Source: a virus (lineage: Duplodnaviria; Caudoviricetes). From it: 32,536 nt of DNA. Positions 277-29,046 of the stretch are shown here, one piece after another. Where the stretch lies: IMG/VR virus record IMGVR_UViG_3300032243_000893, positions 1 through 32,536 of that record. The stretch is one strand, 5' to 3'. The notes under the pieces are model-generated. The model saw nothing but the letters and a program-made list of their open reading frames with translations. It searched no databases and was not told the DNA's origin. A program made the position numbers and the translations under genes. Numbering within the stretch: position 1 is the stretch's first letter; every line of letters starts with the position of its first letter.

Positions 277-305
277 ATTATAACATCATGTGTAAATACT
301 GTCAA
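277..305 (-). promoter_or_regulatory. Consensus sigma70 promoter for the tRNA-like RNA
   Basis: Minus strand TTGACA (305-300), 17-nt spacer ending TGT (extended -10), TATAAT (282-277). The first G of the RNA (270) is 7 nt downstream. Confidence 0.9.
291..298 (+). promoter_or_regulatory. Putative T4-like late promoter motif (TGTAAATA)
   Basis: TAAATA core 6 nt upstream of ATG 305, no Shine-Dalgarno. The same geometry recurs at other unit starts. Confidence 0.55.
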
Positions 306-1267
306 TGCAATTTTCAACCATACCTTTCGAAAAGATTACACATTTTGGACAGCAAACTATGCTGGACCGTCCTTTATTTAATGTCAGTTGGATATTGGGT
401 AGATTTTGTAATTACAAATGTAGCTACTGTTGGCCATATGCTAGAACCGATGTCCCGGATCACCAATCTCTCGAAATATATAAATCTACTGTTGATGAAA
501 TAAAACGTCAAGCACGAGCAAATGGATTCGATCAGTTTCATTGGTCCTTCAGTGGTGGCGAGCCAACGGCATATAAACACTTGCTAGAATTAATCAAACA
601 TTTAGATGACGGTGCATTAACGCCCTATCAAACTGTTCACATGACAACTAATTTGTCACCCGGATCAAAATGGTGGAACACTTGGTGTGCCAATACTGCT
701 TTGTTGCAACGCAGAAGTATTACGGCTAGCTTTCATGCAGAGTTTGCCAAGGAGCAAGAGTTTGGCGACAAATGCTTACAGTTAATGTATGAGCTTGTTC
801 ACGTTACAGTTAATCAAGTTATGGTTCCAGAAAAGTTTTTTGAAACTCTAGAACGCTGTGAACGATTACGTGCTCGTGGAATCAATGTGACTCTTAAACC
901 GCAGAGCAACGATACAGCCACAGCTATTGTGGAAGGTTATACTCCGCAGATGATCGATGTCATGCAGAATGATTTTGAACAGCAGGAAGGTTTTCAGATC
1001 AGATTAACAGATGGCGAGACTGATTACTACATAGATCAGGCAGAACGATTCAATGCGTTAGGGTTCAATAGTTTTACCGATTGGACTTGCAATAGCGGAT
1101 ATCAAAGTGTTATAATAAGAGGTAATGAGGTCAAGCGAGCATACAGTTGCAAAGAGGCATCCTTAGGTACGATAGAAAAATTTACTTTGTTTTCCTCCCC
1201 TAAAATTTGTATAACTGATCGATGTGTCAGTAGTGCTGATAGTAAAATACCTAAAACTAGAATATGA
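305..1267 (+). CDS. Radical SAM protein with C-terminal Cys-rich (twitch-like) extension, subfamily A
   Basis: CNYKCSYC motif, SFSGGEP, TTN, C-terminal WTCNSG...SC...CITDRC. Confidence 0.9.
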   Translation: MQFSTIPFEKITHFGQQTMLDRPLFNVSWILGRFCNYKCSYCWPYARTDVPDHQSLEIYKSTVDEIKRQARANGFDQFHWSFSGGEPTAYKHLLELIKHLDDGALTPYQTVHMTTNLSPGSKWWNTWCANTALLQRRSITASFHAEFAKEQEFGDKCLQLMYELVHVTVNQVMVPEKFFETLERCERLRARGINVTLKPQSNDTATAIVEGYTPQMIDVMQNDFEQQEGFQIRLTDGETDYYIDQAERFNALGFNSFTDWTCNSGYQSVIIRGNEVKRAYSCKEASLGTIEKFTLFSSPKICITDRCVSSADSKIPKTRI

Positions 1268-2265
1268 ACATTGTTAGTGTAGAAAATAATTGGGATGATA
1301 ATACTCTTAGAATAGATATCAATCTAGGAAATATTTGCAACTATAAATGTTGGTACTGCTGGCCGGGTTCGCATGAAGGTACAGACTACTGGCCCGATTT
1401 GGAATTAATAAAAAAGAATACATCGCATCTCATTAATCATTACAAGAATAATTCAAATAAAACTGTATTTGATTTTCATTTTGTAGGCGGCGAGCCCACA
1501 CACTGGCCTAAGCTAGTTGACTATGTGAAGTTTTTAAAAGACAATTTTAACTGTTTGATATCGATGACTTCTAACGGTTCTAAGAAAATTGAATTTTGGA
1601 AAAAGATTGTACCATACTTTGATAGAGTACACCTAAGCGGACATAATGAATTTATGAACGTAGAACAATTTCGAGATGTGGCCGATTTATTATATGAACA
1701 CAATGTGATTGTATCTGTTTCTATGATGATGGATCCGATGGCATGGGACAGATGCATCGAGATCGTTGACTATCTTAAAAAGAGCAGACGCTCTTGGACT
1801 ATTAGATATGTTGAACTTATAGGCGATAATATCACATACACCGAAGAACAAAAAACTGTATTGAAAAAATTCAAAGCCAGACGTGCAAACATATTTTGGT
1901 TTTTTAAAAATAACAAACATTACAGAAGTAAAGTCAAGGTCATCGATGATAGAGGGAAATCTCATAATTTTCACGACAACGAAATATTGCTTAAAAAAAT
2001 TAATCAGTTTAACGGATGGAAATGCAGTGTAGGAGTCGATTGGGTACACATAAGTCGTCAGGGAGAAATTTCAGGCACATGCGGTCAAATTCCTTTTGGA
2101 GAGTTGTCGTATTTTAATTTTTATTCTGAAAACTTCGAAAGTGAATTCAAACCAGTTTTGCAGTATTCAACTTGTGCAAATGTTGCTTGTTGGTGCGGCA
2201 TCGAAACCAATATGAAGAAATACAAAATAGATAACAAAAAGGTAATACCCATATATGTTAATTGA
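1264..2265 (+). CDS. Radical SAM protein with C-terminal Cys-rich extension, subfamily A
   Basis: CNYKCWYC, FVGGEPT, TSNG, WKCSVG...GTC...CANVACWC. ATGA overlap with the upstream gene. Confidence 0.9.
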   Translation: MNIVSVENNWDDNTLRIDINLGNICNYKCWYCWPGSHEGTDYWPDLELIKKNTSHLINHYKNNSNKTVFDFHFVGGEPTHWPKLVDYVKFLKDNFNCLISMTSNGSKKIEFWKKIVPYFDRVHLSGHNEFMNVEQFRDVADLLYEHNVIVSVSMMMDPMAWDRCIEIVDYLKKSRRSWTIRYVELIGDNITYTEEQKTVLKKFKARRANIFWFFKNNKHYRSKVKVIDDRGKSHNFHDNEILLKKINQFNGWKCSVGVDWVHISRQGEISGTCGQIPFGELSYFNFYSENFESEFKPVLQYSTCANVACWCGIETNMKKYKIDNKKVIPIYVN

Positions 2266-2860
2266 CACAGAACACCTGCACTACTGGATGCAGGCCATTC
2301 GACAAAGTGAAAACCCTGTGCGCACTATGGATGCTTTCTGGCAGGGTCAGCTTAAAAGTAAAGAATGGTTAATTGAAGCACTAAGTATGCAGTTCTCAGT
2401 CAAGGACGATCCAGTCAGCATTGAAATACATGGAGGCTGGGTAGGTGTATTGGCCAGTATACTATTCCAAAGCAGTATCCCGATTAAACGAATATACAGT
2501 CTTGATATAGATCCTACTTGCGAATCTATTGCTACTATGATGAACAAGGGTGAAGAAATACAAGGTAGATTCCAAGCAGGTACTGGAGACATGTGTAATC
2601 TGATATCATTTGTCGATGTTGTAATCAATACCAGCTGTGAACACATATCACAGGAACAATATGAAACATGGCTTGGTAAACGTACAAATAGCCAATTGCT
2701 AGTTTTACAAAGTAACAACTATGACATTCCAGAGCATGTCCGTATAGCTAATAGTTTACAAGAATTTAAAGAACAAAGTCACATAAAGGTGCTATGGGCA
2801 GGGGAACTTGAACTACCATTGTATACACGTTATATGATAATAGGGAAACAGGATGTATAA
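2255..2860 (+). CDS. Putative class I SAM-dependent methyltransferase
   Basis: Gly-rich motif I (IEIHGGWVG), acidic strand end (SLDIDP), GDM, DVVINTSCEH. Confidence 0.65.
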   Translation: MLIDTEHLHYWMQAIRQSENPVRTMDAFWQGQLKSKEWLIEALSMQFSVKDDPVSIEIHGGWVGVLASILFQSSIPIKRIYSLDIDPTCESIATMMNKGEEIQGRFQAGTGDMCNLISFVDVVINTSCEHISQEQYETWLGKRTNSQLLVLQSNNYDIPEHVRIANSLQEFKEQSHIKVLWAGELELPLYTRYMIIGKQDV

Positions 2861-3944
2861 GTATTCAGACATCACACGAGTAGAGTTTGAATTATCATCA
2901 AACTGTCAAGCGGCATGTCCCATGTGCGCAAGAAATATACATGGCGGGCAAGATAATCCTAGTTTACCAATTAGTGATATAGACCTTGTATTCTTTAAAA
3001 AACTAGCCCCGCCTGATTTTATACAACAGCTAAAGAATATTTCACTATGTGGTAATTTCGGTGATCCGCTGTTGAACAAGGAACTATTAGAGATATGCGA
3101 ATATATTTCAGAATCTAATCCTGACGTTAGATTAGATTTGCATACTAATGCTAGTATGAGATCCAGAGAGTGGTGGGGCAGACTAGCATCAGTGTTACCC
3201 AAAGGACATGTTGTGCATTTTGGTATCGATGGTCTAGAAGATACTCATTCGCTATACAGGATCAATACTTCTTTCACCAAGATAATTGAAAATGCCAAGG
3301 CATTTATATCTGCCGGTGGTATTGCTCGCTGGAACTTTATTACATTTAAACATAACGAACATCAACTGGAACACGCAAGGCAGTTGGCCAAGGACTTAGG
3401 CTTTGCCAGCTTTCATGAAAAACAAACAAGTAGATTTATTGGAAACCCTTGGTTTGATGTTTGGGACAAAGATGGTAATACATTATACAAGTTAGAAAAC
3501 CCTAGCGAACAAAAGATAGTTTTTATAGAAAGATCAGCAGTAGATAACTATCGTCAGTTGGTCACCGAATCTGTTATATCATGTGAGGTCGAAAGTACTA
3601 AAAGTATATTCGTAGATGCACAGGGATACCTCTGGCCCTGTTGCTTTGTGGGCGGCGCACCCTATCACTATACTGATCCTAAGTTTCTTGTACACGATTA
3701 TAGAACACATAATCTAGATATGGTTAACAAAGCCTTAGATCATTTCGGCGGTATGGAAGGTATAAACCTACGCACACATTCTATCAAAGATATAGTAGAC
3801 AGCGTTGAATGGCAGTCTGTATGGGACGCTAGCTTTACAGGAGATAAGATACCAGTATGTGCTAGAACATGTGGTAAATTTAATCAACCAGTTGTCAGTC
3901 AATGTCGTGATCAGTTCTTAGACTTAGATGTGTTCAATGACTAA
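2853..3944 (+). CDS. Radical SAM/SPASM-twitch protein, subfamily B
   Basis: CQAACPMC, CGNFGDP, HTNAS, FGIDG, C-terminal C...DAQGYLWPCC...CARTC. Confidence 0.9.
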   Translation: MYKYSDITRVEFELSSNCQAACPMCARNIHGGQDNPSLPISDIDLVFFKKLAPPDFIQQLKNISLCGNFGDPLLNKELLEICEYISESNPDVRLDLHTNASMRSREWWGRLASVLPKGHVVHFGIDGLEDTHSLYRINTSFTKIIENAKAFISAGGIARWNFITFKHNEHQLEHARQLAKDLGFASFHEKQTSRFIGNPWFDVWDKDGNTLYKLENPSEQKIVFIERSAVDNYRQLVTESVISCEVESTKSIFVDAQGYLWPCCFVGGAPYHYTDPKFLVHDYRTHNLDMVNKALDHFGGMEGINLRTHSIKDIVDSVEWQSVWDASFTGDKIPVCARTCGKFNQPVVSQCRDQFLDLDVFND

Positions 3945-5235
3945 AACATTTTGCCCCTTACCGTGGATACACCTAGCGACTCGCCCTAATGGTGATGTTC
4001 GTGTATGTTGTACAGCCAACGCTAGTGGTGCTGGCATTGATGATGTTAAAGATGCAGGACTAGTTAAGCAAGACGGTGTGAATATGAACTTACGTGATCA
4101 TACAATAGAGCAGGTTTGGAATTCACAGTTTATGCGAGACACTAGGGTAACTATGTTAGCAGGTGGCACTCCTAGTAGTTGTACTAAATGCTATGCAGAA
4201 GAGGCCAACGGAATTGTCAGCAAAAGACAATGGGAAACTCGTATATGGCAAGACCGTATTGATCTTGATAGCATTGTTGCACAGACTGCAGAAGACGGCA
4301 GTTTACCTGTAAACATTCCTTATTTCGATCTACGCTTGGGTAATATGTGTCAACTTAAATGCATCATGTGTAGTCCACATGATAGTAGTAGTTGGATCAA
4401 AGAATGGAAAGCACAGTACCCAAAGTATAAAACTATTGAACTTAAAAAAGATCAAGAATGGAATATAGACTTTGATTACACTTGGTATCAAAAAGGTATG
4501 TTCTTAGAAAACATGCGTTCAAACGCACATAACATTCGTGAACTTTACTTTGCCGGAGGCGAGCCTTTATTGATACCCGAACACTATAAAATTTTAGAGT
4601 TTATGGTAGAGACTGGTGCCGCAAAATTATGTGTTGTACGTTATAATTCTAATGGGCTAGAACTACCTGAAAAGTTATTTGAATTGTGGAAACACTTTAA
4701 AGAAGTCAAGTTTAACTTTAGCATAGATACTGTAGGAGAACGTAATGATTATATTAGGTATCCTAGCAAGTGGAGTGATGTTGTTGCTAACTTAGAACGT
4801 CTAGATGATACACCAAATAATATTACAGTAAATATTGCCTGTGCTGTACAACTATTAAATGTGTTAACTGTACCAGAATTAGTCTATTGGAAAGAAAGCA
4901 AAAACTTTAAAAAGATCAATCTGCCTCCCTACGGTGCCGGATTGATCGGTACGCATCTAGTTTATTTGCCTAGTTATTTAAATGTTCGAGTGTTGCCTAA
5001 ACATTTAAAAGATCAAGTGGCAAGGCAAATAGAATATTTTTGTTCACGTAAATCTATGGACATAGAATTTATATCTAACCCATATGGATTAAAACGTTGG
5101 CAAGGACTAGTACAATATATGATGGCAGAAGATTGGTCTAACAAATTGCCCATCTTAGAAGATTATCTAACTGTTACAGATACCCATCGGGGTACAGACT
5201 TTAGAAAAGTTTTTCCAGAGCTTGCTAGCTTATAA
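3937..5235 (+). CDS. Radical SAM protein with N-terminal twitch/SPASM-like domain, subfamily C
   Basis: N-terminal FCPLPW...GDVRVCC...CTKC, then CQLKCIMC, FAGGEP, SNG, SID. Start moved to ATG 3937, which overlaps the upstream stop and matches the paralogue start KTFC. Confidence 0.88.
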   Translation: MTKTFCPLPWIHLATRPNGDVRVCCTANASGAGIDDVKDAGLVKQDGVNMNLRDHTIEQVWNSQFMRDTRVTMLAGGTPSSCTKCYAEEANGIVSKRQWETRIWQDRIDLDSIVAQTAEDGSLPVNIPYFDLRLGNMCQLKCIMCSPHDSSSWIKEWKAQYPKYKTIELKKDQEWNIDFDYTWYQKGMFLENMRSNAHNIRELYFAGGEPLLIPEHYKILEFMVETGAAKLCVVRYNSNGLELPEKLFELWKHFKEVKFNFSIDTVGERNDYIRYPSKWSDVVANLERLDDTPNNITVNIACAVQLLNVLTVPELVYWKESKNFKKINLPPYGAGLIGTHLVYLPSYLNVRVLPKHLKDQVARQIEYFCSRKSMDIEFISNPYGLKRWQGLVQYMMAEDWSNKLPILEDYLTVTDTHRGTDFRKVFPELASL

Positions 5236-6015
5236 TCTGTCTATATTTGGACGATTGTATATAGTTGACATATTCCAATTAGCAAGCTCTGGATTTAACT
5301 GAGCATCGGGCCATACACATTGTAAGTAATAAAAATGCTCTGCAGGTGTTGGATGAGGGTCGTCTGTTTCCTTAAACAGTCCAACACCATACATTGATTT
5401 ATTAAATGAATAGAATACATCTCGGTATGTGTTTATGACATCTAAGTGTTTAACGTTACGTGGTACATACGTAGGATCACTAAGGTTGTCACTTTGCTGT
5501 ATCCAAAGATCGTTGCCTGCTTGTTTGTTTATTAGAAACTTAGCAAGTTGTATAGGACTAGCATCAAATGTAGTTAACGGTGCCCAATTTAAAAATGTCC
5601 AGTCGCAACCTCTATTAACAAGTAGTTCTCGTGTAGCTTTGATTGATCCTAAGTCTCTAATAAGATTGCTACGATCGTTACCTGCAAACTTAGTAGTCCA
5701 TTCTTTGCCGTATAAGTTTATTAAGTTGTTTGGAGTAGCATCTTGCCAATATCCATTGTGATATCGATCTTCTCGATTTGCTTTCGTCCACATTATAATT
5801 ACTAGGTCGTCTTTAGTAAAATTATGTTTTGCATCGCACTCCATTACAGAGTTAAAGATAAATTGATTACCGCGGCCAGCCCATCCCCAGTTACTATAGT
5901 AGGGAATACTGCTACCTAGTATGTCGGCCCATGTCGGCCACTTATAGTGTGTAAATGAACATCCAAATGCAAAGAATCGTTTATACTTAGAAGGATTAAG
6001 TGTTTGTAGGTGCAT
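5230..6015 (-). CDS. SGNH/GDSL-like hydrolase or acyltransferase
   Basis: RFFAFGCSFT block I, GxGN, C-terminal DPHPT. Clear paralogue of 13117-13896. Likely start is ATG 6015 (track start 6063). Confidence 0.6.
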   Translation of the reverse strand: MHLQTLNPSKYKRFFAFGCSFTHYKWPTWADILGSSIPYYSNWGWAGRGNQFIFNSVMECDAKHNFTKDDLVIIMWTKANREDRYHNGYWQDATPNNLINLYGKEWTTKFAGNDRSNLIRDLGSIKATRELLVNRGCDWTFLNWAPLTTFDASPIQLAKFLINKQAGNDLWIQQSDNLSDPTYVPRNVKHLDVINTYRDVFYSFNKSMYGVGLFKETDDPHPTPAEHFYYLQCVWPDAQLNPELANWNMSTIYNRPNIDRL

Positions 6016-6907
6016 ACTTTGTAAGAGGAATGTCTGCCGCGCAGGTACAGAAATTACGGTCACAAGTTACGGGTTCGCTAGGTGCAACGAAGTTACCTTC
6101 ATATATGTTGCCTAGACTACCACCGACTCTACAAGTCGCTCTGTGTACATCTCCGTCCCAATTTATCATTAGGCTTTCTATACCTGCGTTGCAAGTCCAA
6201 CCATTAAATTTATTTTGATGATTCTTAATCATATCGTTGGCATGATATGATAGTTGAGCATATTCATTATTCAACCATACTACTGTGTTTGCTTCTACAG
6301 TAGATTCACACTCTTTAATAAAATCTAAATCGTTTGTGTTATAACGCATGTCGTCGAACAAATCATGATCACCTTGTGTCCAACGTATGCGGCGCACTGT
6401 ATTCGGAATGTGCTTTAGCAAACATTTAGCACGTAATTCTGTAACTGCATCCATATGATTATGATGTGCCATAATCTGTGCTATCACTTTTACATTGCTG
6501 AACCCTGCAACACTTTCAACAGTATTATACACACGTTTCCAATCATACTCTAAGTGTATACTGAATACATATTGATTAACAGGAAGGCTGACATAAAACT
6601 CGTAGGGTAAAGTTCCGTTGCTAGTTACACTGATCCAAGTGATGCCTTTAAATTTACAGTACTTAACCAGCTCATCAAATTTAGGATGTACACAGGGTTC
6701 GCCACCTGTAAAACTAAGACGTATAGGTTTTCCCAATGTTATTAATTTATCCACAGTAGCCTTGAGTATTTCTATATCAGTGTGCGGACTAGTGTTATCA
6801 TGTATACTTGCAGGACAGTAGCTACAATCATAATTACAACGTTTACCAAGGTTCCATTCAATCTTAATACTGCCCTGATGCGGATAGCGACTCGTTACTT
6901 TAAGCAT
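5996..6907 (-). CDS. Radical SAM protein, subfamily A
   Basis: WNLGKRCNYDCSYC, SFTGGEP, TSNG, WTCNAG...ATC...CDRNFCTC. Likely start is ATG 6907, overlapping the upstream stop (track start 7033). Confidence 0.88.
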   Translation of the reverse strand: MLKVTSRYPHQGSIKIEWNLGKRCNYDCSYCPASIHDNTSPHTDIEILKATVDKLITLGKPIRLSFTGGEPCVHPKFDELVKYCKFKGITWISVTSNGTLPYEFYVSLPVNQYVFSIHLEYDWKRVYNTVESVAGFSNVKVIAQIMAHHNHMDAVTELRAKCLLKHIPNTVRRIRWTQGDHDLFDDMRYNTNDLDFIKECESTVEANTVVWLNNEYAQLSYHANDMIKNHQNKFNGWTCNAGIESLMINWDGDVHRATCRVGGSLGNIYEGNFVAPSEPVTCDRNFCTCAADIPLTKYAPTNT

Positions 6908-8159
6908 AGTCTCTAAACTCTGGGGTAACATCAAAAAAACTTTGATCACGTGTTTGATCGAGTCTACGATTAAACTCAACGCAGTCCTGCCACTTTTCAT
7001 TTTGATCCACAGCATTAATATAATTAATAACACCGTTGATTTGTTCCAGTGTGATGTCTAACAAAATAGGATTTTCTTTAACATATTTAAATTCCGGAAC
7101 ACGCAACTTAACAGCTTCAAGGCGTATGATAGCAAGCATCTTTAATTGTAGAGGTAGCACTTGAGCTGATAATACATTAGGGTAATTAACCATATTGGTA
7201 TAAAATACAATTCCCAGTTTATCTAAAAAGTATTCGATCATCTTATCTAAAACTAGTACATTACTAACTTGAACTGCGACTGCTCCTACAACACGGTTGA
7301 TGTTGGGAATAATTTGGATCTCTTTAATGTTTTGAACAACTTGCTTCCAATTACCGTTACCGCGAATGTACTGGTAAACATCACCAATGCCGTCAATGCT
7401 GACATTAACGGCAACGCTTCTAAAATGAGGCCAATAGTCATGTACTGTTCTTCCTTTACTAATACCTAGTGTAGTGCCATTAGTGGCATACTTTATTTCT
7501 ATCTGATGTCCGTACGGTTTTAGCATATCTAATATACGATAGTGCTGTGGATCCATTAAAGGTTCGCCACCGGCAAACTCTACTCGTCTAAAGTATGGTA
7601 ATAGTTTTTCAAATGATTCCCACCAGTTTGGGTTATCTTCAAATTTATCTAAGTAGGGTTTTTTAATTAAATTAAGTTTTCTTACGTTACCTGCAATGTA
7701 GTTATTTTCTTTATCATAAAATTCTTCTACTTGATTCCAATCATTCCAACTGGTACTGTCCGTCGGATTACACATACGGCATTTTAAATTACATAAATTA
7801 TTGAGCTTGATTTCCATTGTTGGAATTTCAAATGGCATCATAAAGTCATGTGTCATTTTACTTAAAGCATCTGGATAGAGATTAATCCTAGCCTCGGGTA
7901 TGATGCCTGCTAGATGTCGTTGTCTGAGACTCTCTACTCCTTGGTCCTCTAGATTAAAACAGGGCGCACATTCTGGCGGACGATCACCCCGTAATACTTG
8001 TCTACGGATTCGTTGCATTGCTTCGCCGTTCCAGTGATACTCTAATGATGCGTCTTGAATAAATCCAATAGGATGACTACGACAGCATACCTTAACGGCT
8101 CCGTCTTCTCTAGTGGCTAATCCGGTAAATGGGTGCATGCAAAACGTTTTACTATTCAT
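6900..8159 (-). CDS. Radical SAM protein with N-terminal twitch/SPASM-like domain, subfamily C
   Basis: FCMHPF...VKVCC...ECAPC, then CNLKCRMC, FAGGEP, TNG, SIDG. Confidence 0.9.
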   Translation of the reverse strand: MNSKTFCMHPFTGLATREDGAVKVCCRSHPIGFIQDASLEYHWNGEAMQRIRRQVLRGDRPPECAPCFNLEDQGVESLRQRHLAGIIPEARINLYPDALSKMTHDFMMPFEIPTMEIKLNNLCNLKCRMCNPTDSTSWNDWNQVEEFYDKENNYIAGNVRKLNLIKKPYLDKFEDNPNWWESFEKLLPYFRRVEFAGGEPLMDPQHYRILDMLKPYGHQIEIKYATNGTTLGISKGRTVHDYWPHFRSVAVNVSIDGIGDVYQYIRGNGNWKQVVQNIKEIQIIPNINRVVGAVAVQVSNVLVLDKMIEYFLDKLGIVFYTNMVNYPNVLSAQVLPLQLKMLAIIRLEAVKLRVPEFKYVKENPILLDITLEQINGVINYINAVDQNEKWQDCVEFNRRLDQTRDQSFFDVTPEFRDYA

Positions 8160-8163: not shown

Positions 8164-8194
8164 TATTTAACCAGGTTATACTAGCACATAAATA
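8164..8194. promoter_or_regulatory. Divergent pair of T4-like late promoter motifs
   Basis: GTTAAATA on minus (8171-8164), 4 nt before ATG 8159. CATAAATA on plus (8187-8194), 5 nt before ATG 8200. Confidence 0.7.
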
Positions 8195-17824: not shown

Positions 17825-17832
17825 TATTTATA
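17825..17832 (-). promoter_or_regulatory. T4-type late promoter TATAAATA (exact match)
   Basis: Exact T4 late consensus 5 nt upstream of ATG 17819, in a 23-nt divergent gap. Confidence 0.75.
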
Positions 17833-20493: not shown

Positions 20494-21227
20494 TTAAAAC
20501 TATTGGATTTTTTGGTGATAGTTTTTGTTCAGAAAGAGTTAATCATCACAGTTTGTTTTATGGTTACAAAACATACATTGATTTGTTAGCAAAACACTAC
20601 GATGCAAAAATTGTAAATTTAGGGCATGGTGGATCGGGAATTTGGGATACGCTACTAATACAATTGAATCCATTAATTGAAAAAAATCAAGTTCCTGATG
20701 TTTGCGTATTTGTGTGGACTTTACCTGGCAGATTATTTAATAGAGAAGTACGCAGACTTAATCATAGTGATACTTTGCATCCAAAATTGCATACATATAA
20801 TCCACTTAAATATCGTATATGGAATGCCGCAAAAGAATTTTATAATCATTTATACGATTACGAAAAAGAAGATATAGAATACAAAGCCGCGTTACTTTAT
20901 ATTGATAAGATAGTGTTGAGTCAATTGCCAACAACTACAAAAATTGTACATTTGTGGTCTGCAGGCACTACTGCACAATGGTCTAATGATGCTGTTAACC
21001 TTGCAACATATCCTTATACTTGGACGCATGGCGCTGAAATAAGGCCTAGCTTATTAAGTCTAAGTTTGCAAGATGCTGATATTTCTGTATTGCAAACTGA
21101 CCATCGATGCAATCACTTAGATGGTTATTTTAAAAATAATATTGTTTTTGAAAGTATTAAAACTGCTATCGATCACCCAAATAAACTTTACGATAAATGT
21201 TGGGTAACGGATCGTTTGGCCACTTAA
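20490..21227 (+). CDS. SGNH/GDSL-like protein
   Basis: GFFGDSF, NLGHGGS, WTLPGR, C-terminal CNHL. Confidence 0.6.
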   Translation: MIKTIGFFGDSFCSERVNHHSLFYGYKTYIDLLAKHYDAKIVNLGHGGSGIWDTLLIQLNPLIEKNQVPDVCVFVWTLPGRLFNREVRRLNHSDTLHPKLHTYNPLKYRIWNAAKEFYNHLYDYEKEDIEYKAALLYIDKIVLSQLPTTTKIVHLWSAGTTAQWSNDAVNLATYPYTWTHGAEIRPSLLSLSLQDADISVLQTDHRCNHLDGYFKNNIVFESIKTAIDHPNKLYDKCWVTDRLAT

Positions 21228-21747
21228 TGTAATTTGTAAAGGCATGTTTAACAAGGATACCCATGTCTAGTTTACCATCAGTTTCTATATCTTTTACTAA
21301 TTTTGCACGTTCAGGATTTAATATAGGACGATAAAAGTTCATGTCAATTGGTTGTTCTCTAACATCACTAGAACTGTAAAAACCGTAAGCGTGTAATTGT
21401 TCTTGTTTATCTGTATAGAAATATTTTGTATAAAAACTAGGTTTATATATTTTTTCGTTATACAAGTCCTGTGTAATCTGTTGCAGTTGTTCTATGTAGT
21501 CTACTGGAACATATTCTTCGCAAGTATTTCCATACCATTTGAATGAAATACGTCTAGTAAAAGGATTTACTTCTAATAGTTCCGGTGCCCAGGAATATTT
21601 GATTAATTGTAATACGTAGCGTTTTTCTCTTTCAAAACTACTTGTAACTAATTCTTGCGGATACCTATCCCCAGTGGGATTAAAATCCATAGTTGCGCTA
21701 TTATCATTAATAATTAAATTGAATATGCCGTGATCAATAACTGTCAA
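21166..21747 (-). CDS. Protein-kinase-like fold protein with degenerate active site
   Basis: FEREKRY (alphaC Glu), WAPELLEV, IYKPSFY in the catalytic-loop position. Similar to 22561-23247. TTG start uncertain. Confidence 0.5.
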   Translation of the reverse strand: MTVIDHGIFNLIINDNSATMDFNPTGDRYPQELVTSSFEREKRYVLQLIKYSWAPELLEVNPFTRRISFKWYGNTCEEYVPVDYIEQLQQITQDLYNEKIYKPSFYTKYFYTDKQEQLHAYGFYSSSDVREQPIDMNFYRPILNPERAKLVKDIETDGKLDMGILVKHAFTNYIKWPNDPLPNIYRKVYLGDR

Positions 21748-22537
21748 GATGGTCTATTCCTAATTTTTTACGAAAATCTTCAGTAAATTTTCCGTCAATA
21801 CGAAGTCCGTAGCTTTGTTCCATAATACGTTCACCGCCGTGCCAATCTACATCATTCCACCAAGCCGCCCGACAATTTAAATATGTCTTGTCTTTAGTTT
21901 CCGGATCCCATAAGTAAAATGCTTTCTTAGTATTGGGTCGAACGTGTATAAACTCATTGCGGTGTGGTTTGACTACATCCACGCCGTTCTTAGCATCTAA
22001 GTCTCTGTGTTCAAATGGGATGCCATCTGCTTCGCAATGAAAGAATATAACACGCCCAATTTCTTCAAATACAGTACCCACTAGACTTTCAACCCACTTG
22101 ACTACACTAGGAAAGTACTCGGCTTCCGGAGTTAATTTGCGTGGAGCAGTTCTATCATCCCATGATCCTTCTTCCCACAAATAATAATAAATGTATGGAT
22201 CGTACGACCCCATAGCCATTTTTAAGAACCGTGTAAACTTATTACGTTGTTGAAAATTTTTAAAATCTGTGGGCATTAATTTCATACCAGCTTGATATAT
22301 TGGATCATCCTTAGGAAGCTCCATAAATTCATCCATAGACTGATAAATTGGTTTCCAACTAAGTTTATAACTCATATTTTCAAATGAGAACCCTGGTTTC
22401 ATCCAAGTTCCTTCTTTAGCAAATTCACGTGCTAGGGCAAATCCTGTCAATATTTCAGGTTGCAGTTGTTCAAACATGGCCATATCTAAGTATGGTTCCA
22501 TGTTATAATAAGACTTGCCATTTATACCTTTTAGCAT
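21734..22537 (-). CDS. Putative Fe(II)/2OG oxygenase
   Basis: GRVIFF, FEHRD (HxD), WWNDVDWHGG, LRIDG. AAAGGA Shine-Dalgarno upstream. Confidence 0.6.
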   Translation of the reverse strand: MLKGINGKSYYNMEPYLDMAMFEQLQPEILTGFALAREFAKEGTWMKPGFSFENMSYKLSWKPIYQSMDEFMELPKDDPIYQAGMKLMPTDFKNFQQRNKFTRFLKMAMGSYDPYIYYYLWEEGSWDDRTAPRKLTPEAEYFPSVVKWVESLVGTVFEEIGRVIFFHCEADGIPFEHRDLDAKNGVDVVKPHRNEFIHVRPNTKKAFYLWDPETKDKTYLNCRAAWWNDVDWHGGERIMEQSYGLRIDGKFTEDFRKKLGIDHLDSY

Positions 22538-22547
22538 GATATCCTTT

Positions 22548-22555
22548 GATAATTA
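22548..22555 (+). promoter_or_regulatory. Late promoter variant GATAATTA (palindromic TAATTA core in a divergent gap)
   Basis: 5 nt upstream of ATG 22561. The core reads the same on the minus strand, towards 22537. Confidence 0.45.
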
Positions 22556-22560
22556 ACTGT

Positions 22561-23247
22561 ATGGACTACGAATACTATTATAACAATGTACCCGGGGAAG
22601 GTCAATCCCGCAATAACCTTATTTACACTAGTTTGATCAGCACTGATAAAAAAACTTTTGTACAATGGTACACTACTGAATCTGACTATCACAACGGGCA
22701 GAACGAAGTAGTGAATCCAAAATTAATGAAAGAAAAGTTTCATCGTGAGCTACACTACCTTAGTAACATGGCTTGGCACAATCCAGACATGGTGCCTAAG
22801 ATTAAAGAAGTTAATATTCCAGAGCAAAAGATCTATCTAGAAATAGATGGTTTAGATTTCTGGAATCGTGCCAACTGTACTACAGAAAATTATGATAGTG
22901 TAGTTCCTGATTGGCAAGAGCAGATGATTGCTATTGTCCAGGCACACAAGGCCAGAGGTTGGCACAAGTATTCAATGCATCCTAGTAGTTACTTTGTGAT
23001 AGGTGGCAAACTTAAAAGTATCAACTATTTTTTTACATATCACAAAGATGAAAAGAATGTCAGTATCGCTGAAGTAGAAAGTCATATACACTCCAATAGG
23101 CAAGCAGAAATGCGCAAATATTTGGAATCTTTAGGAATCGAATGGAATACGCCACAACCATGGGAAGTAATGGATCAACTGTGTTGGGAAAGTTTTAGAA
23201 CAAACTATCCAGCAGAATTTATAGAGCGTATTAAATGTATAAAATAG
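22561..23247 (+). CDS. Protein-kinase-like fold protein with degenerate active site
   Basis: KFHRELHYL, VPKIKEV, KIYLE, GWHKYSMHPSSY (HxDxxxxN position), LKSINYF (DFG position). Likely start is ATG 22561. Confidence 0.55.
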   Translation: MDYEYYYNNVPGEGQSRNNLIYTSLISTDKKTFVQWYTTESDYHNGQNEVVNPKLMKEKFHRELHYLSNMAWHNPDMVPKIKEVNIPEQKIYLEIDGLDFWNRANCTTENYDSVVPDWQEQMIAIVQAHKARGWHKYSMHPSSYFVIGGKLKSINYFFTYHKDEKNVSIAEVESHIHSNRQAEMRKYLESLGIEWNTPQPWEVMDQLCWESFRTNYPAEFIERIKCIK

Positions 23248-23777
23248 TACCATGGTCAGAAGATTTAGACTTAGTAGACTTTTATAGATATTGCGAGTCC
23301 AAAGGGTTCGTAAATAATGCTAGTCAAAAGGCAATGATAGATTGCTTTCGCAACGAACGTGAATGGTGTGTATGGATTCTGTTTTACAATGATGTAGCTG
23401 TTGGTAGCGTGGCTGCACACAGCATCGACGAGGGATATCGAATCTGTGCTAGAACCTGTGTATTGTCAGAACTACTTCCGTTAAATACGTTACGCACCCG
23501 CAATCAGATTGCCACGCATAATCATGTTACAGCACAGTACTTAATGTCTGCTTGTATAGAATGGGTTGGCAACGCAGGTAACATGTATATTACTAGCCAC
23601 CCTAGCGAAGTAGGTACACAGCGTCTAGTACATACTGTATGGGGTCCTACTTTAGAAAAGACAGGAGTTCTTACAAGAGCATTTGAAAAAGATTATAGAG
23701 GACATGTCCAAACATTTTGGAAACTTAATACCAATGTATTCTTAAAACAACTAGAAGAAGTAAAATGGAAACAGTAA
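23235..23777 (+). CDS. Putative GNAT-fold acyltransferase-like protein
   Basis: Size (180 aa) and the pattern WILFYNDVAVGSVAAH...YRICARTCV...LMSACIEW...MYITS fit GNAT topology. No clear acetyl-CoA loop. Confidence 0.4.
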   Translation: MYKIVPWSEDLDLVDFYRYCESKGFVNNASQKAMIDCFRNEREWCVWILFYNDVAVGSVAAHSIDEGYRICARTCVLSELLPLNTLRTRNQIATHNHVTAQYLMSACIEWVGNAGNMYITSHPSEVGTQRLVHTVWGPTLEKTGVLTRAFEKDYRGHVQTFWKLNTNVFLKQLEEVKWKQ

Positions 23778-24844
23778 GTCTTTGCGAACATTGTTATAGA
23801 CACGTACCAGCTACTAAGTTTATACGTGATAATAGTGTATGGATGAGTAAAAAATGTCCGGATCACGGTTATAGTGAATACATGATTGAACGTGACGCAG
23901 AATTTTATAAGTCATTAGAATTTGATCCGTATGGATATGATGTGCCTAGTGGTATTATGATTGAAGTTACTGATCGCTGTAATTTAAAATGTCCGCACTG
24001 TTATCATGAACCAGAAAATGCAACTTCAGATAAATCATTGGGTTATATCTTAAATCAAATTGAAAGTTGGCCTGATGACGCAGGTAGCGTTATTCTAGCA
24101 GGAGCAGAACCGACGCTACGTAAAGACTTACTTGAGTTGATTAGAAATATTAAGCACGTACAGCAACGCCTGGGACGTACACATCAGGACATTACAATAT
24201 TAACTAACGGTGTTAAACTTGCTGATAAAAAATGGACCGAAGATATTGCTAAAGCAGGATGTCGTGCTGTTATGATTGGTCTTAATCACAGTAGCTATCA
24301 AGGTAATACTGTACATAAGAAACAGTTGCAAGGAATCGAGAACTGTAAAGAATTTGGTATCATTGTCTATTATGTTGGTTACACGTTAGAGAACTTAGAT
24401 CATATTCCAGATGTGCTAGAAGAGATACAACAGCTAGGACATAGTGCTACACAATATCGTGTACGTGCAGGCAGTGATATCGGACGTAATCCAGACGAGC
24501 CTCGATATTATCTAAGCGATCATATTAAAGCAATTAAAACCTACGCTGATAGTAAAGGATGGTCTTGGGAAAAGATCCCAGCTGATGATAACTTATATCA
24601 CTATATGGTTAAAATTAATGGTATCACTCATAGGCTAATACAATGGAGCGATCCAAAGACCATTGATATGGAAGAACTACGTTGCGGACCATGGTGCGAT
24701 TTTGTTCCGGGGAAACCTATTACTAACTTTCTACACCAGATTATGTTACGTGATGCGGCTGTTAATAACAAGATGATGTTATGGGATACTGTTCCTGAAC
24801 GTTATCGATTCCGTACTAGAGAACAGATGCAGTTAGATCCCTAA
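23765..24844 (+). CDS. Radical SAM protein with N-terminal CxxC...CxxH metal domain (Tes/MJ0619-like N-terminus)
   Basis: TVSLCEHC...PA...KKCPDHG...DAEFY, then IEVTDRCNLKCPHCY, AGAEPT, LTNG. Confidence 0.85.
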   Translation: METVSLCEHCYRHVPATKFIRDNSVWMSKKCPDHGYSEYMIERDAEFYKSLEFDPYGYDVPSGIMIEVTDRCNLKCPHCYHEPENATSDKSLGYILNQIESWPDDAGSVILAGAEPTLRKDLLELIRNIKHVQQRLGRTHQDITILTNGVKLADKKWTEDIAKAGCRAVMIGLNHSSYQGNTVHKKQLQGIENCKEFGIIVYYVGYTLENLDHIPDVLEEIQQLGHSATQYRVRAGSDIGRNPDEPRYYLSDHIKAIKTYADSKGWSWEKIPADDNLYHYMVKINGITHRLIQWSDPKTIDMEELRCGPWCDFVPGKPITNFLHQIMLRDAAVNNKMMLWDTVPERYRFRTREQMQLDP

Positions 24845-25188
24845 CGTTCTAAATAGGTTGTCTTGATAAACTTCGGACTGAAGAACTCTTCTACAGTGTG
24901 AACAACTATACTAGTTTTGAATTGTTTACAGCTGAATATGTCGATATAGGCGTTACCCGTTTTATTGACAAAGTGTGCGGTAATATTGCTAGTGGTAATC
25001 ATTTGTAGTAAACTATAACCTTCATTGTCAGTGCCTGGCAATAGTAATTCGATTTGAGGAGCCCCATGTACCTGCATATCTATTCTTTCTACGAGAGTTG
25101 AAACAAAATTGCGTATAGTGCTATCGTTGTTTATAGATTCTATGTTGCAATTTTTACAGTCCAATATCAGATGGTAACCCCAAATCAT
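24841..25188 (-). CDS. speD: Pyruvoyl-dependent S-adenosylmethionine decarboxylase proenzyme-like
   Basis: WGYHLILD, GYS...ITTSNITAHF (autocleavage Ser), YIDIFSCK. 115 aa, class 1b size. Confidence 0.8.
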   Translation of the reverse strand: MIWGYHLILDCKNCNIESINNDSTIRNFVSTLVERIDMQVHGAPQIELLLPGTDNEGYSLLQMITTSNITAHFVNKTGNAYIDIFSCKQFKTSIVVHTVEEFFSPKFIKTTYLER

Positions 25189-25850
25189 TTTATTTCCCTA
25201 AGTATTAATTCTGCTAGAGCATTGTGGGCATCCCGGCCATAGTGATAGTGCTGTAGTTGTATAAATCTTTTAGCCTTACACCAATCTAGATAGTTGTCGT
25301 TGCCTTCAAATTTAAACACATTGTCTACAATAGGTATCTGCTCGGAAAACAAAGGCAAGTGTATATAATCTAAAGCATAGCCGTTACAGATATTGTCGAC
25401 ACAAAACATTAGGTCTTCTAGATTATTTCTAGAATATAAATTTTTTATATAAAAATCATTAACAGGACTAGTAAACACTCCTTCCCATTGTACACCTAAT
25501 TGTAGAAAATTATCCTGATCACAGCCTAATCCGCCTGGTGGATAATAAATTTCCGATCTATCAGTGCTAGTGTATCCAAATAATACTAGACTGTTTGGAT
25601 GTGCCTGTACTGCTTGAATAAGAAGTCTAAGGCTTCGAGCGTTACTGCCACCGCTCATTGCATAGTTATAACAAGGTATCTCTAATTGATCTGCTACTAT
25701 TTTTGGAAATGCTAGTTCCTTCCCCGGTGCATCCGCTTGTTCTATAGTGATCCGTCCTGAAATATAGTCTTCTAAATTATACTTGTTGTCTAATTCACAC
25801 CCTGCTACGTGGCTATCGCCAAATGCTAAAACGGATTGAAAATGTTTCAT
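25185..25850 (-). CDS. SGNH/GDSL-like protein
   Basis: LAFGDSHVAG, NYAMSGGSN, GYTSTDR, C-terminal YHYGRDAH. Confidence 0.65.
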   Translation of the reverse strand: MKHFQSVLAFGDSHVAGCELDNKYNLEDYISGRITIEQADAPGKELAFPKIVADQLEIPCYNYAMSGGSNARSLRLLIQAVQAHPNSLVLFGYTSTDRSEIYYPPGGLGCDQDNFLQLGVQWEGVFTSPVNDFYIKNLYSRNNLEDLMFCVDNICNGYALDYIHLPLFSEQIPIVDNVFKFEGNDNYLDWCKAKRFIQLQHYHYGRDAHNALAELILREIK

Positions 25851-25864
25851 TGGAATTTTATACG

Positions 25865-25872
25865 CTTAAATA
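25865..25872 (+). promoter_or_regulatory. Putative late promoter motif CTTAAATA
   Basis: 5 nt upstream of ATG 25878. A TATAAAAT variant on the minus strand (25862-25855) lies 4 nt before ATG 25850. Confidence 0.6.
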
Positions 25873-25877
25873 TGTTT

Positions 25878-27491
25878 ATGTTTAATGTGATACTATTTAC
25901 CGATGCACCATACCCTCATCATAAAATTCGCGGATACGGGGTTCACCGTATAGCTAGTCAGATTCGTACGGCAGGATATACCTGCTTGGTTATAGACTTT
26001 AGTTCGGCATTGTCCTTTGAGAAGTATAAAGAAATTATAGACAACTCTGTTGGTCCAGAAACACTGATGGTCGGTTTTAGTACCACATGGATGCCCTACC
26101 GCTGGCCTGAACTACCTGGAGAATTTACCAATCAAATCCCCGGCCATCATATCGGTGAAGAACACGAATTATCACATTTAAAAGAACAATCACATGATTG
26201 GCGCAAGGATAACTTAATTATAAAGTTTGGTAAAAATGAAGTTGAGGAATTTTTACAATATCCAAAAACTATTAATCCTAAACTTAAGATTGTATTGGGC
26301 GGCGCCAAGGCAGACTTCTATATGGATTTACAAAATGTAGATCATGTTATATTTGGTATTGCCGAAACTATGACTATTGACTTGTTGGATAAGTTAAGCG
26401 GTAAAAGTAAACGTATTTTTAACAAGTATATTGATCATGATCGAAAAGCACATGCTGACTCATGGGATTTTAGAGAAAGCAGTACACGTTATAACAATTT
26501 AGATTTTATACTGCCAATGGAAACTCTTACATTAGAAGTAGGTCGAGGTTGTCGTTTTAAGTGTGCGTTTTGTAACTTTCCGCTTATTGGTCAAAAGAAC
26601 GTAAACGATTATTTAAAATATCCTGAAAAAATTCGTGACGAACTATTAGAAAATTATGAACGTTGGGGGACTACCAAATACTTTATTGTAGATGATACAT
26701 TTAATGATAGTACAGAAAAATTAGAGATGATGGTAAAGGTCATGCGAGACCTGCCATTTAAAATTAAATTCTGGTGTTATACCCGCATTGATTTACTAGC
26801 GGCACATCCAGAACAAATAGAATTACTTAAAGAACTAGGCATTGCTGAAACATTCTTTGGACTTGAAACATTTAATGATCAAAGCTCTAAGACTATTGGA
26901 AAAGGAATGTCTAGCAGTCGTCGTAAAGATACACTATACAAAGCTAAAGAAGTATGGGGCGATCGAGTGTGGATGGAGGGAGGTTTTATGATAGGCTTAC
27001 CTTACGAAACACGGGCAAGCTGGCGTAATACTGTTGACTGGCTCAAGCAAGCAGATTGCCCATTAGATATCAGTACTTGCTATCCAGTCAACATTGTTAA
27101 AAAGTCGGATCGAAATCAATGGTTTCCAACCAGTTGGTTTGATAACAATTATGAAAAGTTTGGTTATGAATTCCCCCATGATGGCATTGAGGGAATGTTA
27201 GCATGGGAAAAGAATGATGATACCGATATCAATAGTTTTGTCCAAGCTCAACAAATAGCCATCGAAACAACACAGGAACTAGCCGCCTACCAACGAACAC
27301 GCCGAGGCGATTTCTATACTAGTAGTTTCAATCATCCGTTACTATGTGATAGAGAAAAAACATTAGACATGTCAACTGTAGAATATAATAATTTAATTAG
27401 TACTATTGATTTTGATCAATTATTCTTTGAACACACTAATAGAGATTATTTTATTCCGTTAATTCAAGCATTGAAGGATCGTAATGTTTGA
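25878..27491 (+). CDS. Cobalamin-binding-domain radical SAM protein (class B methylase-like)
   Basis: GVHRIAS...VGFSTTW...IVLGGA B12-type N-domain, EVGRGCRFKCAFC, VDDTF, FGLET, MIGLPYET. Start 25878 (MFNVILFTD) matches the paralogue start MFDVVLFTD. Confidence 0.88.
   Translation: MFNVILFTDAPYPHHKIRGYGVHRIASQIRTAGYTCLVIDFSSALSFEKYKEIIDNSVGPETLMVGFSTTWMPYRWPELPGEFTNQIPGHHIGEEHELSHLKEQSHDWRKDNLIIKFGKNEVEEFLQYPKTINPKLKIVLGGAKADFYMDLQNVDHVIFGIAETMTIDLLDKLSGKSKRIFNKYIDHDRKAHADSWDFRESSTRYNNLDFILPMETLTLEVGRGCRFKCAFCNFPLIGQKNVNDYLKYPEKIRDELLENYERWGTTKYFIVDDTFNDSTEKLEMMVKVMRDLPFKIKFWCYTRIDLLAAHPEQIELLKELGIAETFFGLETFNDQSSKTIGKGMSSSRRKDTLYKAKEVWGDRVWMEGGFMIGLPYETRASWRNTVDWLKQADCPLDISTCYPVNIVKKSDRNQWFPTSWFDNNYEKFGYEFPHDGIEGMLAWEKNDDTDINSFVQAQQIAIETTQELAAYQRTRRGDFYTSSFNHPLLCDREKTLDMSTVEYNNLISTIDFDQLFFEHTNRDYFIPLIQALKDRNV
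26655..26695 (+). repeat. 41-bp exact direct repeat, copy 1
   Basis: tatgaacgttgggggactaccaaatactttattgtagatga, identical to 28222-28262. Confidence 0.9.
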
Positions 27492-29046
27492 TGTTGTACT
27501 GTTTACTGACAGTGTAGGATTCCAAGTCAAATCTAGAGGATACGGAGCGCATAGATTAGCAAGCCATATCAGAGCCAATGGCTATACTTGCTTGGTCATA
27601 GATTTTAGTTCTATCATAACTTGGGATATCTATACATCGATACTAGATCATGCGATTGGAAAAAATACACTAGCTGTCGGATATTCGACTACCTGGATGC
27701 CTTTTAAATTTCCAGATGCTGGTGTACGCACTAGTAATCCAGGTGAAGGTGAAGGTGACGATTATGATAGATTTAGCATAGATAGTTTAGTTACCGCGTT
27801 TGCCAAAGATAATTATACACCATGGGTTGACTACGTTAAAAAATGCAATTCAAAAACTAAAACAATTATAGGAGGAGCAAAAATTGACTTCTATCTTAAT
27901 GCTCCTATAGACCATATTATAGTCGGTATAGGTGAAACAGAAACTATAGATTTATTAGATAGTCTAAGTGGTAAGTCGCGTAGATTGTTTAATCGTATAA
28001 TAAACCACGATCGTAAAGCACATAATCCAAGTTGGAATTTTAATTACAGTACAACAAGCTACACAGATTATGATCTAATCTTGCCAAATGAAACATTAAA
28101 CTTAGAAATCAGTCGTGGGTGTAAATTTAAGTGTGCATATTGTTCCTATCCGCTGATAGGACAAAAAACATCTGACTATCTAAAACATCCAGATGTAATT
28201 CGTAGAGAACTAATGGAGAACTATGAACGTTGGGGGACTACCAAATACTTTATTGTAGATGACACGTTTAACGACAGCACAGAAAAGATGCAGATGTTTG
28301 CTGACGTTAGTCAGAGCTTACCATTCGAATTAAAATTTTGGGCATATCTACGTGTTGATATAATTGCCGCGCACCCGGAACAAATACAGTTACTAAAAGA
28401 TGCCGGTTTGCAAGAAACTTATTTTGGTATAGAAACATTTAATCCCAAGACTGCAAAATTTATAGGTAAGGGGATGGCTAGTGATCGTGTTGTCGATACG
28501 TTGTATAAATGTAAAGAAGCATGGGGATCACGCAGTTATATCGCCGCAGGAGTCATAGTAGGGCTACCGTATGAAACACAGGCAACCTTACAGACCGCAG
28601 TAGATTTTTTTAAACGTACCGATTGTCCAATCGATCTAGCGAACACATTTCCATTAAGCATAGTTGGTAATCACGATATGATAAAGTTTATGTATATGAG
28701 CGAAATTGATCGCAACTATAGTAAGTACGGTTACTATTTTCCTAATCCAGAAACAAATTATTTTAATTGGTGCAAGGATGATGATACTGACATTAACAGT
28801 TACCAACAGGCAGAAGCACTATCACAAGCATTTAATATGTCATTACCCGATAGACCCTATCGAGGTGATTTTTACATCAGCAGTTTTAATGATTCTCGTC
28901 TAGGAGATAGAGAGAAAAATTTAGACTTAACAGATCAAGAGTATCAAGATCTAATTAAGTCTATTAATTTTACAGAATTATTTAGAGAAACAGTTACAAC
29001 AGATTATCTAAATCCCCTGATAGCTAAATTAATTAAGGCCCGGTAA
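27484..29046 (+). CDS. Cobalamin-binding-domain radical SAM protein, tandem paralogue
   Basis: GAHRLAS, VGYSTTW, IIGGA, EISRGCKFKCAYC, VDDTF, FGIET, VGLPYET. Confidence 0.88.
   Translation: MFDVVLFTDSVGFQVKSRGYGAHRLASHIRANGYTCLVIDFSSIITWDIYTSILDHAIGKNTLAVGYSTTWMPFKFPDAGVRTSNPGEGEGDDYDRFSIDSLVTAFAKDNYTPWVDYVKKCNSKTKTIIGGAKIDFYLNAPIDHIIVGIGETETIDLLDSLSGKSRRLFNRIINHDRKAHNPSWNFNYSTTSYTDYDLILPNETLNLEISRGCKFKCAYCSYPLIGQKTSDYLKHPDVIRRELMENYERWGTTKYFIVDDTFNDSTEKMQMFADVSQSLPFELKFWAYLRVDIIAAHPEQIQLLKDAGLQETYFGIETFNPKTAKFIGKGMASDRVVDTLYKCKEAWGSRSYIAAGVIVGLPYETQATLQTAVDFFKRTDCPIDLANTFPLSIVGNHDMIKFMYMSEIDRNYSKYGYYFPNPETNYFNWCKDDDTDINSYQQAEALSQAFNMSLPDRPYRGDFYISSFNDSRLGDREKNLDLTDQEYQDLIKSINFTELFRETVTTDYLNPLIAKLIKAR
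28222..28262 (+). repeat. 41-bp exact direct repeat, copy 2
   Basis: Identical to 26655-26695, at the homologous position of the paralogue. Confidence 0.9.

Follow-up and report, generated by a model that had tools for sequence, protein, structure and literature searches.

The virus record IMGVR_UViG_3300032243_000893 (Caudoviricetes), whose entire length of 32,536 nucleotides (32.5 kb) is the window analysed here, carries at 305-29046 an island of 33 open reading frames (ORFs), mostly modifying enzymes, which is 99.6% coding with a largest gap of 40 bp. An earlier note on this DNA had counted the same 33 contiguous genes. The reading favoured here, tentatively and with less than even confidence, is that the island tailors, late in infection, a glycan for virion surface proteins, for example the product of the adjacent predicted fibre gene. 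New here are candidates for the transferase and for the acceptor, the mapped positions of promoter boxes, and gene neighbourhoods in cellular genomes that speak for glycans. If this reading is true, a widespread uncultured phage lineage devotes 30-50 kb to chemically elaborate virion coats, which would represent a so far undescribed layer of host range or of predation and defence, and the island would be a source of uncharacterised radical S-adenosylmethionine (SAM), iron/2-oxoglutarate (Fe/2OG), halogenase-like and amidinotransferase families.

The candidate transferase is encoded at 11198-12526 (plus strand; genes are named below by their first coordinate). The earlier claim that the cluster has no scaffold-building gene is too strong, because the product of gene 11198 (442 aa, no library match) is predicted to be a fusion of a glycosyltransferase A (GT-A)/nucleotidyltransferase fold and a methyltransferase-like domain. 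In the predicted model (predicted local distance difference test score 83), the N-terminal half matches STIV A197 with a VIA Z of 9.8 (root-mean-square deviation 3.3, 147 aligned), and both Fringe and the PBCV-1 capsid glycosyltransferase with 9.3, while the C-terminal half has a methyltransferase fold (CheR, Z 8.0). Foldseek gave 18 matches at E<=0.001, all of them glycosyltransferases as far as listed, and the search of the ESM Atlas returned unnamed viral clusters only. The family occurs in 49 of the 80 loci anchored on gene 21734, which are the best 80 of its 162 matches (73-90% identity) and are each visible over at most about 20 kb, so that counts from them are undercounts; it is also present in the relatives G007 and G015. 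The protein is classed as GT-A-like only, and a scaffold step carried out by it is a lead that would still need proof.

The second line of evidence is provided by cellular relatives of the N-terminal twitch radical SAM family NF033640 (N_Twi_rSAM), whose cut-off of 170 bits is passed by genes 3928 (415 bits) and 6900 (329 bits). At E<=1e-40 the family was found in 5/401 genomes of the bacterial phylum of genome G016; the four matching genomes besides the seed were G094, G166, G298 and G321, and 96/115 ORFs of the neighbourhoods were scanned. In G094, the twitch genes are accompanied by two GT2 and one GT1 proteins, a carbamoyltransferase, two proteins each of the SGNH and B12 radical SAM types, and oxygenases of the PhyH (six) and AspH (three) families. 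The G166 neighbourhood contains five GT2 proteins (one fused to a methyltransferase), nucleotidyltransferases, a nucleoside diphosphate (NDP)-sugar dehydratase, a DegT aminotransferase and a sugar C-methyltransferase, and that of G298 a polysaccharide deacetylase, a carbamoyltransferase and an SGNH protein. G321 offers a 10-kb contig with one MptE-like match. The neighbourhoods in G094, G166 and G298 therefore indicate that the enzyme mix of the phage island occurs in glycan-type loci. Together with the GT-A-fold gene, they make a glycan substrate better supported than a peptide or protein one, on which the earlier note had laid its emphasis. The G094 genes belong to a bacterial chromosomal cluster (G094:C2:1190000-1247000; L358, L354, L359), which also includes a WelO5-like gene and is a cellular counterpart of the island's enzyme mix.

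The island is arranged in nine blocks of alternating strand and is not one operon. The hexamer TAAATA lies 4-6 nt ahead of the ATG at 5/9 block heads (binomial P ~1e-12): at 293-298 (plus), 6 nt before gene 305; back-to-back within 8164-8194, as 8164-8169 (minus) and 8189-8194 (plus), 4 and 5 nt before the respective ATGs; at 17825-17830, 5 nt before gene 17223; and at 25867-25872, 5 nt before gene 25878. A sixth head, that of gene 22561, carries TAATTA at 5 nt, and TAAATA is found at no internal gene of the island. In relatives, TAAATA precedes 51/55 homologues of gene 8200 and 10/12 of gene 25878, and 0/33, 0/53 and 0/60 homologues of three internal genes. It is less consistent at the other heads (10/26 for 305, 7/57 for 6900, 4/69 for 21734), and homologues of 22561 have TAAATA in 7/66 and TAATTA in 34/66 cases. 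In G007, with duplicates removed and with some "structural" labels guessed for very long proteins, the box stands ahead of 13/39 structural and 0/19 replication or metabolic genes (Fisher p 0.005); its replication genes and FolE/QueE are without it. The lineage encodes a gp55-like late sigma factor, as seen in G007. ATAAATA has been predicted ahead of structural genes in CBB and GAP32 (accessible text of PMC5259590), and for PA5oct the portion of PMC7318152 at hand reports only TATAATA/TTGAC motifs. The short distances from the boxes (293, 8169, 8189, 17830, 25867) to the start codons imply leaderless late messages, and the island is thus probably transcribed late and without leaders. Of the late expression proposed earlier, the late-type motif at the block heads, which in G007 marks structural and not replication genes, stands as observed; the timing itself is suggested by the motif. 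Genome-wide, the spacing of TAAATA peaks at 5 nt in both G006 (18/32) and G007 (13/24).

The candidate acceptor is the predicted fibre with an Mtd_N domain (PF18454) encoded at 29033-30667 (minus), whose product is rich in Thr, Gly and Ser (T 16%, G 14%, S 11%). Ahead of it, at 30694-30751 (minus), a terminator-like hairpin (30751-30728) is followed by a TAAATA box (30699-30694), 26 nt upstream of the gene. The association with a fibre gene reported before was recovered in related loci, since the Mtd_N gene borders the island in 20/21 distinct loci where that flank is visible. Nevertheless, the gene converges on the last island unit and does not belong to the same operon, and the adjacency is not obligatory. 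A strict linkage of fibre gene and island was rejected, as the two lie 22-31 kb apart in G006 and G007. Across loci the fibre varies from 294 to 696 aa and the core enzymes are 60-90% identical. Beyond the fibre gene, a sigma-70 scan of 29000-32536 gave 7 sites against 8.8 in shuffled sequences, and single sites there are therefore weak. A sigma-70-like site at 31613-31585 lies upstream of a 56-aa ORF (31387-31557, minus) between the phosphatase and phosphoesterase genes.

Searches of viral contigs returned 41 loci for the twitch gene 3928 and 19 loci for the B12 gene 27484, and the large relatives measure 270-345 kb at 76-94% completeness. One relative, G007, has 28/33 island genes in similar order, and among the ORFs scanned (93/258) are those for a T4-type capsid, portal, terminase and late sigma factor. 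The G007 capsid protein shares 68-73% identity with its counterparts in Phosso, PA5oct, GAP32 and CBB, and by sequence the lineage is one of Rak2-like T4-type jumbo phages of ~350 kb. The window itself is without a capsid gene, and its phage origin is supported by the virus record and by the syntenic relatives with capsid, portal, terminase and late sigma genes, on which grounds a cellular origin was rejected. The sole bacterial-genome match of gene 21734 is a 4.6-kb contig of a metagenome-assembled genome, which is read as a binned phage fragment. Outside the island, G007 encodes GT8, two GT25, UDP-glucose dehydrogenase, epimerases and carbamoyltransferases, and one such sugar-gene pair shows the same divergent TAAATA layout.

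The 80 loci share a core formed by the families of genes 22561 (74 loci), 9487 (71), the GNAT gene (68), 8200 (66) and twitch 6900 (62). Accessory members are the aminotransferase (9), amidinotransferase (8), SpeD (7) and halogenase (1, plus 5 of a sister family). Between loci, the order of the genes differs strongly. The site is flanked on one side by a phosphoesterase/phosphatase/AAA block with the Mtd_N gene and on the other by a tRNA-like RNA; other relatives have nothing at this site or a different set of tailoring genes there, and no more than 2 radical SAM matches occur in G011 (94% complete). The island is a hotspot that is conserved although its genes are reshuffled. No cultured phage with the island core was found in 50,697 records, in which the twitch gene matched at only 22-25%, gene 21734 had no match and the B12 gene gave one partial 24% match. 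In the cultured Ralstonia phage RsoM2USA (L204, 197357-238535), very long genes are followed by a small block that includes a distant twitch radical SAM and resembles blocks in G006 and G007. Other observations on the relatives are IscA-IscU-IscA iron-sulfur assembly genes adjoining the radical SAM island (G006:C1:282581-283670, L179); the same hotspot with SpeD, oxygenases, and desaturase-like and solute-binding-like proteins assigned by eye (G011:C1:236000-257000, L327); and a GTP cyclohydrolase with a QueE-like gene outside the G007 island (G007:C1:99094-105500, L188). This pair is without TAAATA, which suggests a separate 7-deazaguanine pathway.

The enzyme inventory given in the earlier note was right, with uneven support, as some genes pass Pfam cut-offs and others are assigned by motif or weak match. 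All ten radical SAM genes pass PF04055 and have CX3CX2C. They comprise the head gene 305-1267 (plus) and its paralogues 1264-2265 (plus) and 5996-6907 (minus; start picked by eye, longest ORF to 7033); 2853-3944 (plus), with a weak C-terminal SPASM/twitch match, and 19435-20493 (plus), 33% identical to it; the twitch genes 3928-5235 (plus) and 6900-8159 (minus); 23765-24844 (plus), with an HMPTM zinc ribbon, a distant Tes/TrsS relative below cut-offs; and the B12-type genes 25878-27491 and 27484-29046 (both plus, 52% identity). For the latter two, matches to specific families are all below cut-offs; B12-binding PF02310 reaches E 0.001, below cut-off, in 25878 and has no match in 27484.

Eight genes are Fe/2OG or AspH-like. 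PF05118 is passed by 10564-11211 and 13909-14631 (both plus) and matched below its cut-off by 8200-8865 (plus; H81, D83 and H125 conserved), these three being AspH-like, and the other five assignments are therefore by motif only: 8862-9503 (plus; H113 D115 H172), 9487-10020 (plus; H98 D100 H155), 10010-10573 (plus; H73 D75 H147), 17223-17819 (minus) and the highly conserved 21734-22537 (minus), for which a library-wide profile found 395 unnamed relatives. The HxD...H set is conserved in 7/8, and 13909 retains two His. The four SGNH-like genes, 5230-6015 (minus; GCSF...DPHP motif; start picked by eye, longest ORF to 6063), 13117-13896 (plus; 33% identity to 5230), 20490-21227 (plus) and 25185-25850 (minus), the last two assigned by motif, have an N-terminal G[DC]S[FH] in 4/4 and no library match. 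Two mutually related genes (E 3e-18) have a protein-kinase-like fold, degenerate in 21166-21747 (minus) and also present in 22561-23247 (plus); their profile weakly matches TTK kinase (E 3e-4). Gene 23235-23777 (plus) has a predicted GNAT fold with a single canonical domain, 1558 homologues and a protein acetyltransferase as top match; its listed Foldseek matches are single-domain GNATs, with no FemX or Leu/Phe-transferase chain among them.

Pfam cut-offs are also passed by the flavin-dependent Trp-halogenase family gene 17843-19438 (plus; GxGxxG and active-site Lys context present), the class III pyridoxal-phosphate aminotransferase 16039-17226 (minus) and the pyruvoyl S-adenosylmethionine decarboxylase/SpeD homologue 24841-25188 (minus; PF02675). 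The amidinotransferase-family gene 15034-16077 (plus) matches HsvA, inosamine-phosphate amidinotransferase, SxtG and AGAT in a PDB profile search (E 2e-29). In this family an invariant WHTAT stands where characterised enzymes have FDAAD, and its catalysis may therefore differ. The remaining genes are a probable class I methyltransferase (2255-2860, plus; motif only, E 0.21 match), a short SDR-like oxidoreductase (12504-13127, plus; weak matches) and a protein of phrog_10325 (14621-15037, plus; start picked by eye, longest ORF from 14516). PDB sequence searches yielded nothing useful for the GNAT alignment, 2853 or 27484. The absences listed earlier also held: nonribosomal peptide synthetase/polyketide synthase, transporter and regulator genes were found in none of the Pfam, PHROG and NCBIfam scans of the island, which likewise contained no nucleotide-pathway gene. 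No precursor peptide is evident either, because gaps of at most 40 bp are too small for a free-standing precursor ORF, although a precursor of a ribosomally synthesised and post-translationally modified peptide may be encoded elsewhere in the genome. No recognition element (RRE) domain appears among the Pfam/NCBIfam matches shown, no search aimed at it having been made.

Glycan tailoring by these enzymes would proceed as follows. The late sigma factor would read TAAATA at the divergent operon heads, probably giving leaderless messages. Twitch/SPASM radical SAMs, the SDR and Fe/2OG enzymes may oxidise, epimerise or hydroxylate sugars, or an aminocyclitol-like unit, and the aminotransferase, amidinotransferase, GNAT, SGNH, kinase-like and methylating enzymes may introduce amino, amidino, acyl, phospho and methyl substituents. 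Attachment or capping of the units would fall to the GT-A/methyltransferase fusion and to glycosyltransferases and NDP-sugar enzymes whose genes lie elsewhere in such genomes, and lineage-specific gene swaps could vary the coat. The accessory amine and guanidine genes could supply a glycan substituent or point to a free metabolite. A more elaborate version, in which a 20-30-step pathway yields an amidinated, methylated, acylated and possibly halogenated fibre glycan, gene-shuffled like an O-antigen locus and with the tRNA-like RNA as aminoacyl donor, is very improbable.

Several findings weigh against a glycan on the virion. Gene 11198 is without DxD, the metal-binding motif of GT-A glycosyltransferases, its position reading STG/AGT-type in 25/25 aligned family members; nucleotidyltransferases lie within 1 Z of glycosyltransferases for its model; and the family was not found in G006 (93% complete, 15 radical SAM matches), G011 or G012. 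The window holds no NDP-sugar dehydratase, epimerase or DegT aminotransferase, and neither 2853 nor 27484 matched a solved sugar-acting radical SAM. The G094 neighbourhood also holds two FabH and an AMP-binding enzyme. The Trp-halogenase family acts on aromatics, and it and the SpeD family act on amino acids. WxWxIP, a motif of flavin-dependent halogenases, reads WRFKVT in 17843 and is retained in 4/12 family members listed. The HsvA match of the amidinotransferase narrowly beats that of inosamine-phosphate amidinotransferase (E 2e-27), and the aminotransferase is closest to omega/putrescine/ornithine transaminases. The distance between fibre gene and island in G006 and G007, the different gene sets that the Mtd_N gene borders in G011 and G014, and the guessed labels in the promoter comparison belong here too, as does the report that phage SpeD homologues often decarboxylate Orn or Arg (PMC10407285, accessible portion).

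Some of these points could also speak for a different product. That the island makes a diffusible amino-acid- or polyamine-derived molecule (amidino, halo, methylated) directed against the host or competitors would agree with SpeD without a spermidine synthase, whose phage homologues have the activities just cited, the omega-transaminase-like aminotransferase, the HsvA/SxtG-type amidinotransferase and the halogenase family. However, these four genes are accessory, each in <=9/80 loci (an undercount in the 20-kb view), neither a transporter nor a precursor peptide is present, and the late motif fits virion assembly better; such a product is unlikely. Direct modification of virion-protein side chains, by hydroxylation, methylation, cross-links, phosphorylation, acylation or halogenation, shares the late motif and the fibre adjacency with glycan tailoring and could account for the three AspH-family matches, the protein-kinase-like fold, the protein acetyltransferase as top GNAT match and the weak matches to peptide-maturase radical SAM models. 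The maturase matches are all far below cut-offs, though, and small molecules are the substrates of the aminotransferase, SpeD and SDR families. The fibre, mostly Thr/Gly/Ser, changes greatly in length while the core enzymes stay conserved, and this explanation is given a low probability.

The enzymes may instead alter O-antigen, lipid A or other lipids at the surface of the host and so keep out competing phages, as has been proposed for pelagimyophage glycosyltransferases (PMC7029224, in the text available). The cellular homologues do lie in surface-glycan-like loci, but the weak matches to LpxO, a lipid B12 radical SAM and Tes are all far below cut-offs, and late expression in a lytic phage would leave little time for a benefit, which makes this role quite unlikely. 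A hypermodified DNA base bearing a tailored oligosaccharide is compatible with the GT-A fold and the 2OG oxygenases, and has a parallel in the ~1-kDa oligosaccharide-like group on YerA41 thymidine (excerpt of PMC9023294). It is nonetheless decidedly unlikely, given that the island has no nucleotide-pathway gene and adjoins a fibre gene, not the replisome, and that TAAATA marks the island heads and neither the replication genes nor FolE/QueE of G007.

The tRNA-like RNA at 153-270 (minus), a conserved flank of the island, has a type II fold with a long variable arm, and a hypervariable hairpin of variable length replaces the anticodon arm. ARAGORN misses it, and the Rfam transfer-messenger RNA (tmRNA) model scores 21 bits against a gathering threshold of 47, with no family at threshold. 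A pattern scan gave 120 loci of an estimated 260 stretches in viral contigs, and 101 complete copies represent 73 distinct variants. All seven acceptor pairs form in 70/73 variants and the A73-CCA end is present in 71/73, whereas the tmRNA-type G3-U70 is rare (G-U at pair 3 in only 2/73); the predicted terminal loop has 3-10 nt, never 7, so that none is a canonical anticodon loop. In a 17-sequence alignment, 204/204 cells of the acceptor and T stems are paired, and at 7/12 pairs changes occur on both sides. The runs for RNA listed no holder for 21000-30800. The RNA lies directly upstream of the 305 homologue in 60/79 RNA-anchored loci with enough flank, and this position, the A73-CCA end and the covarying stems would suit an anticodon-less RNA acting as the missing scaffold, either an aminoacylated carrier or a substrate for island enzymes. 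Yet the RNA is kept at sites that lack the island (L206, L208, L223, L283) and in G011, a similar one in G006 is distant from the island, 72/73 variants carry a -10-like box in place of TAAATA, and the GNAT is a single canonical domain. A scaffold role is therefore highly improbable. A strict linkage of the RNA to the island was rejected, and, because it persists without the island, it is treated as backbone.

Tailoring of a virion glycan, the reading retained, can be set beside several known systems. Regions of phage genomes with many radical SAM genes are already in print without a function, and the island is a real one. Full-text searches of the literature showed no paper that assigns it a function, although these families could be included in the supplements of PMC7824862 or PMC5332604. 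The term "radical SAM" is absent from the text of the jumbo-phage review PMC7824862, the available part of PMC7609411 does not mention phages, and PMC12619734, as far as its text was accessible, describes a different lineage. A T4-like marine genome has 12 radical SAM genes, no function being given in the part of PMC5332604 at hand. The cultured Aeromonas phage 332-Vera, reported as a chimallivirus, is likewise a jumbo phage with many such genes, eight of them among structural genes and, in the passages available, with no function given (PMC12390700). It does not occur in the tblastn lists of the island genes, and homology to the island is thus not established. In pelagimyophages, tail fibres, glycosyltransferases and radical SAM cassettes occur together in host-recognition clusters (PMC7029224, in the same text), and these clusters and the cyanomyophage hypervariable clusters resemble the island in lying near fibre genes with swappable cassettes; their function, as far as the text goes, is likewise only proposed. 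Their Trp-halogenase homologues are 26-30% identical. In contrast, the island belongs to Rak2-like phages of ~350 kb and has a conserved core, divergent leaderless-type operons, and classical glycosyltransferases outside it.

Phage virion glycans are documented on mycobacteriophage capsids and tails (cited in the accessible text of PMC12619734). The model of 11198 resembles the PBCV-1 capsid glycosyltransferase and STIV A197 by fold, and the island, whose glycan product is a prediction, differs from the PBCV-1, STIV and mycobacteriophage systems in the absence of DxD and in far more redox and tailoring enzymes. Aminocyclitol tailoring is performed by enzymes such as StrB1 (streptomycin), BtrN (butirosin) and GenK (gentamicin). 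The island shares with aminoglycoside/aminocyclitol sets an amidinotransferase, twitch and B12 radical SAMs, an aminotransferase, a kinase fold and an SDR; it differs from them in having no cyclase, resistance or export genes, and the radical SAM and aminotransferase searches did not retrieve aminoglycoside tailoring enzymes. The cellular members of NF033640, for which no reaction is known to us, have B12 radical SAMs, 2OG oxygenases, SGNH proteins and carbamoyltransferases among their neighbours. In comparison with them, the twitch genes described here are part of a phage island, equipped with TAAATA boxes and eight further radical SAMs.

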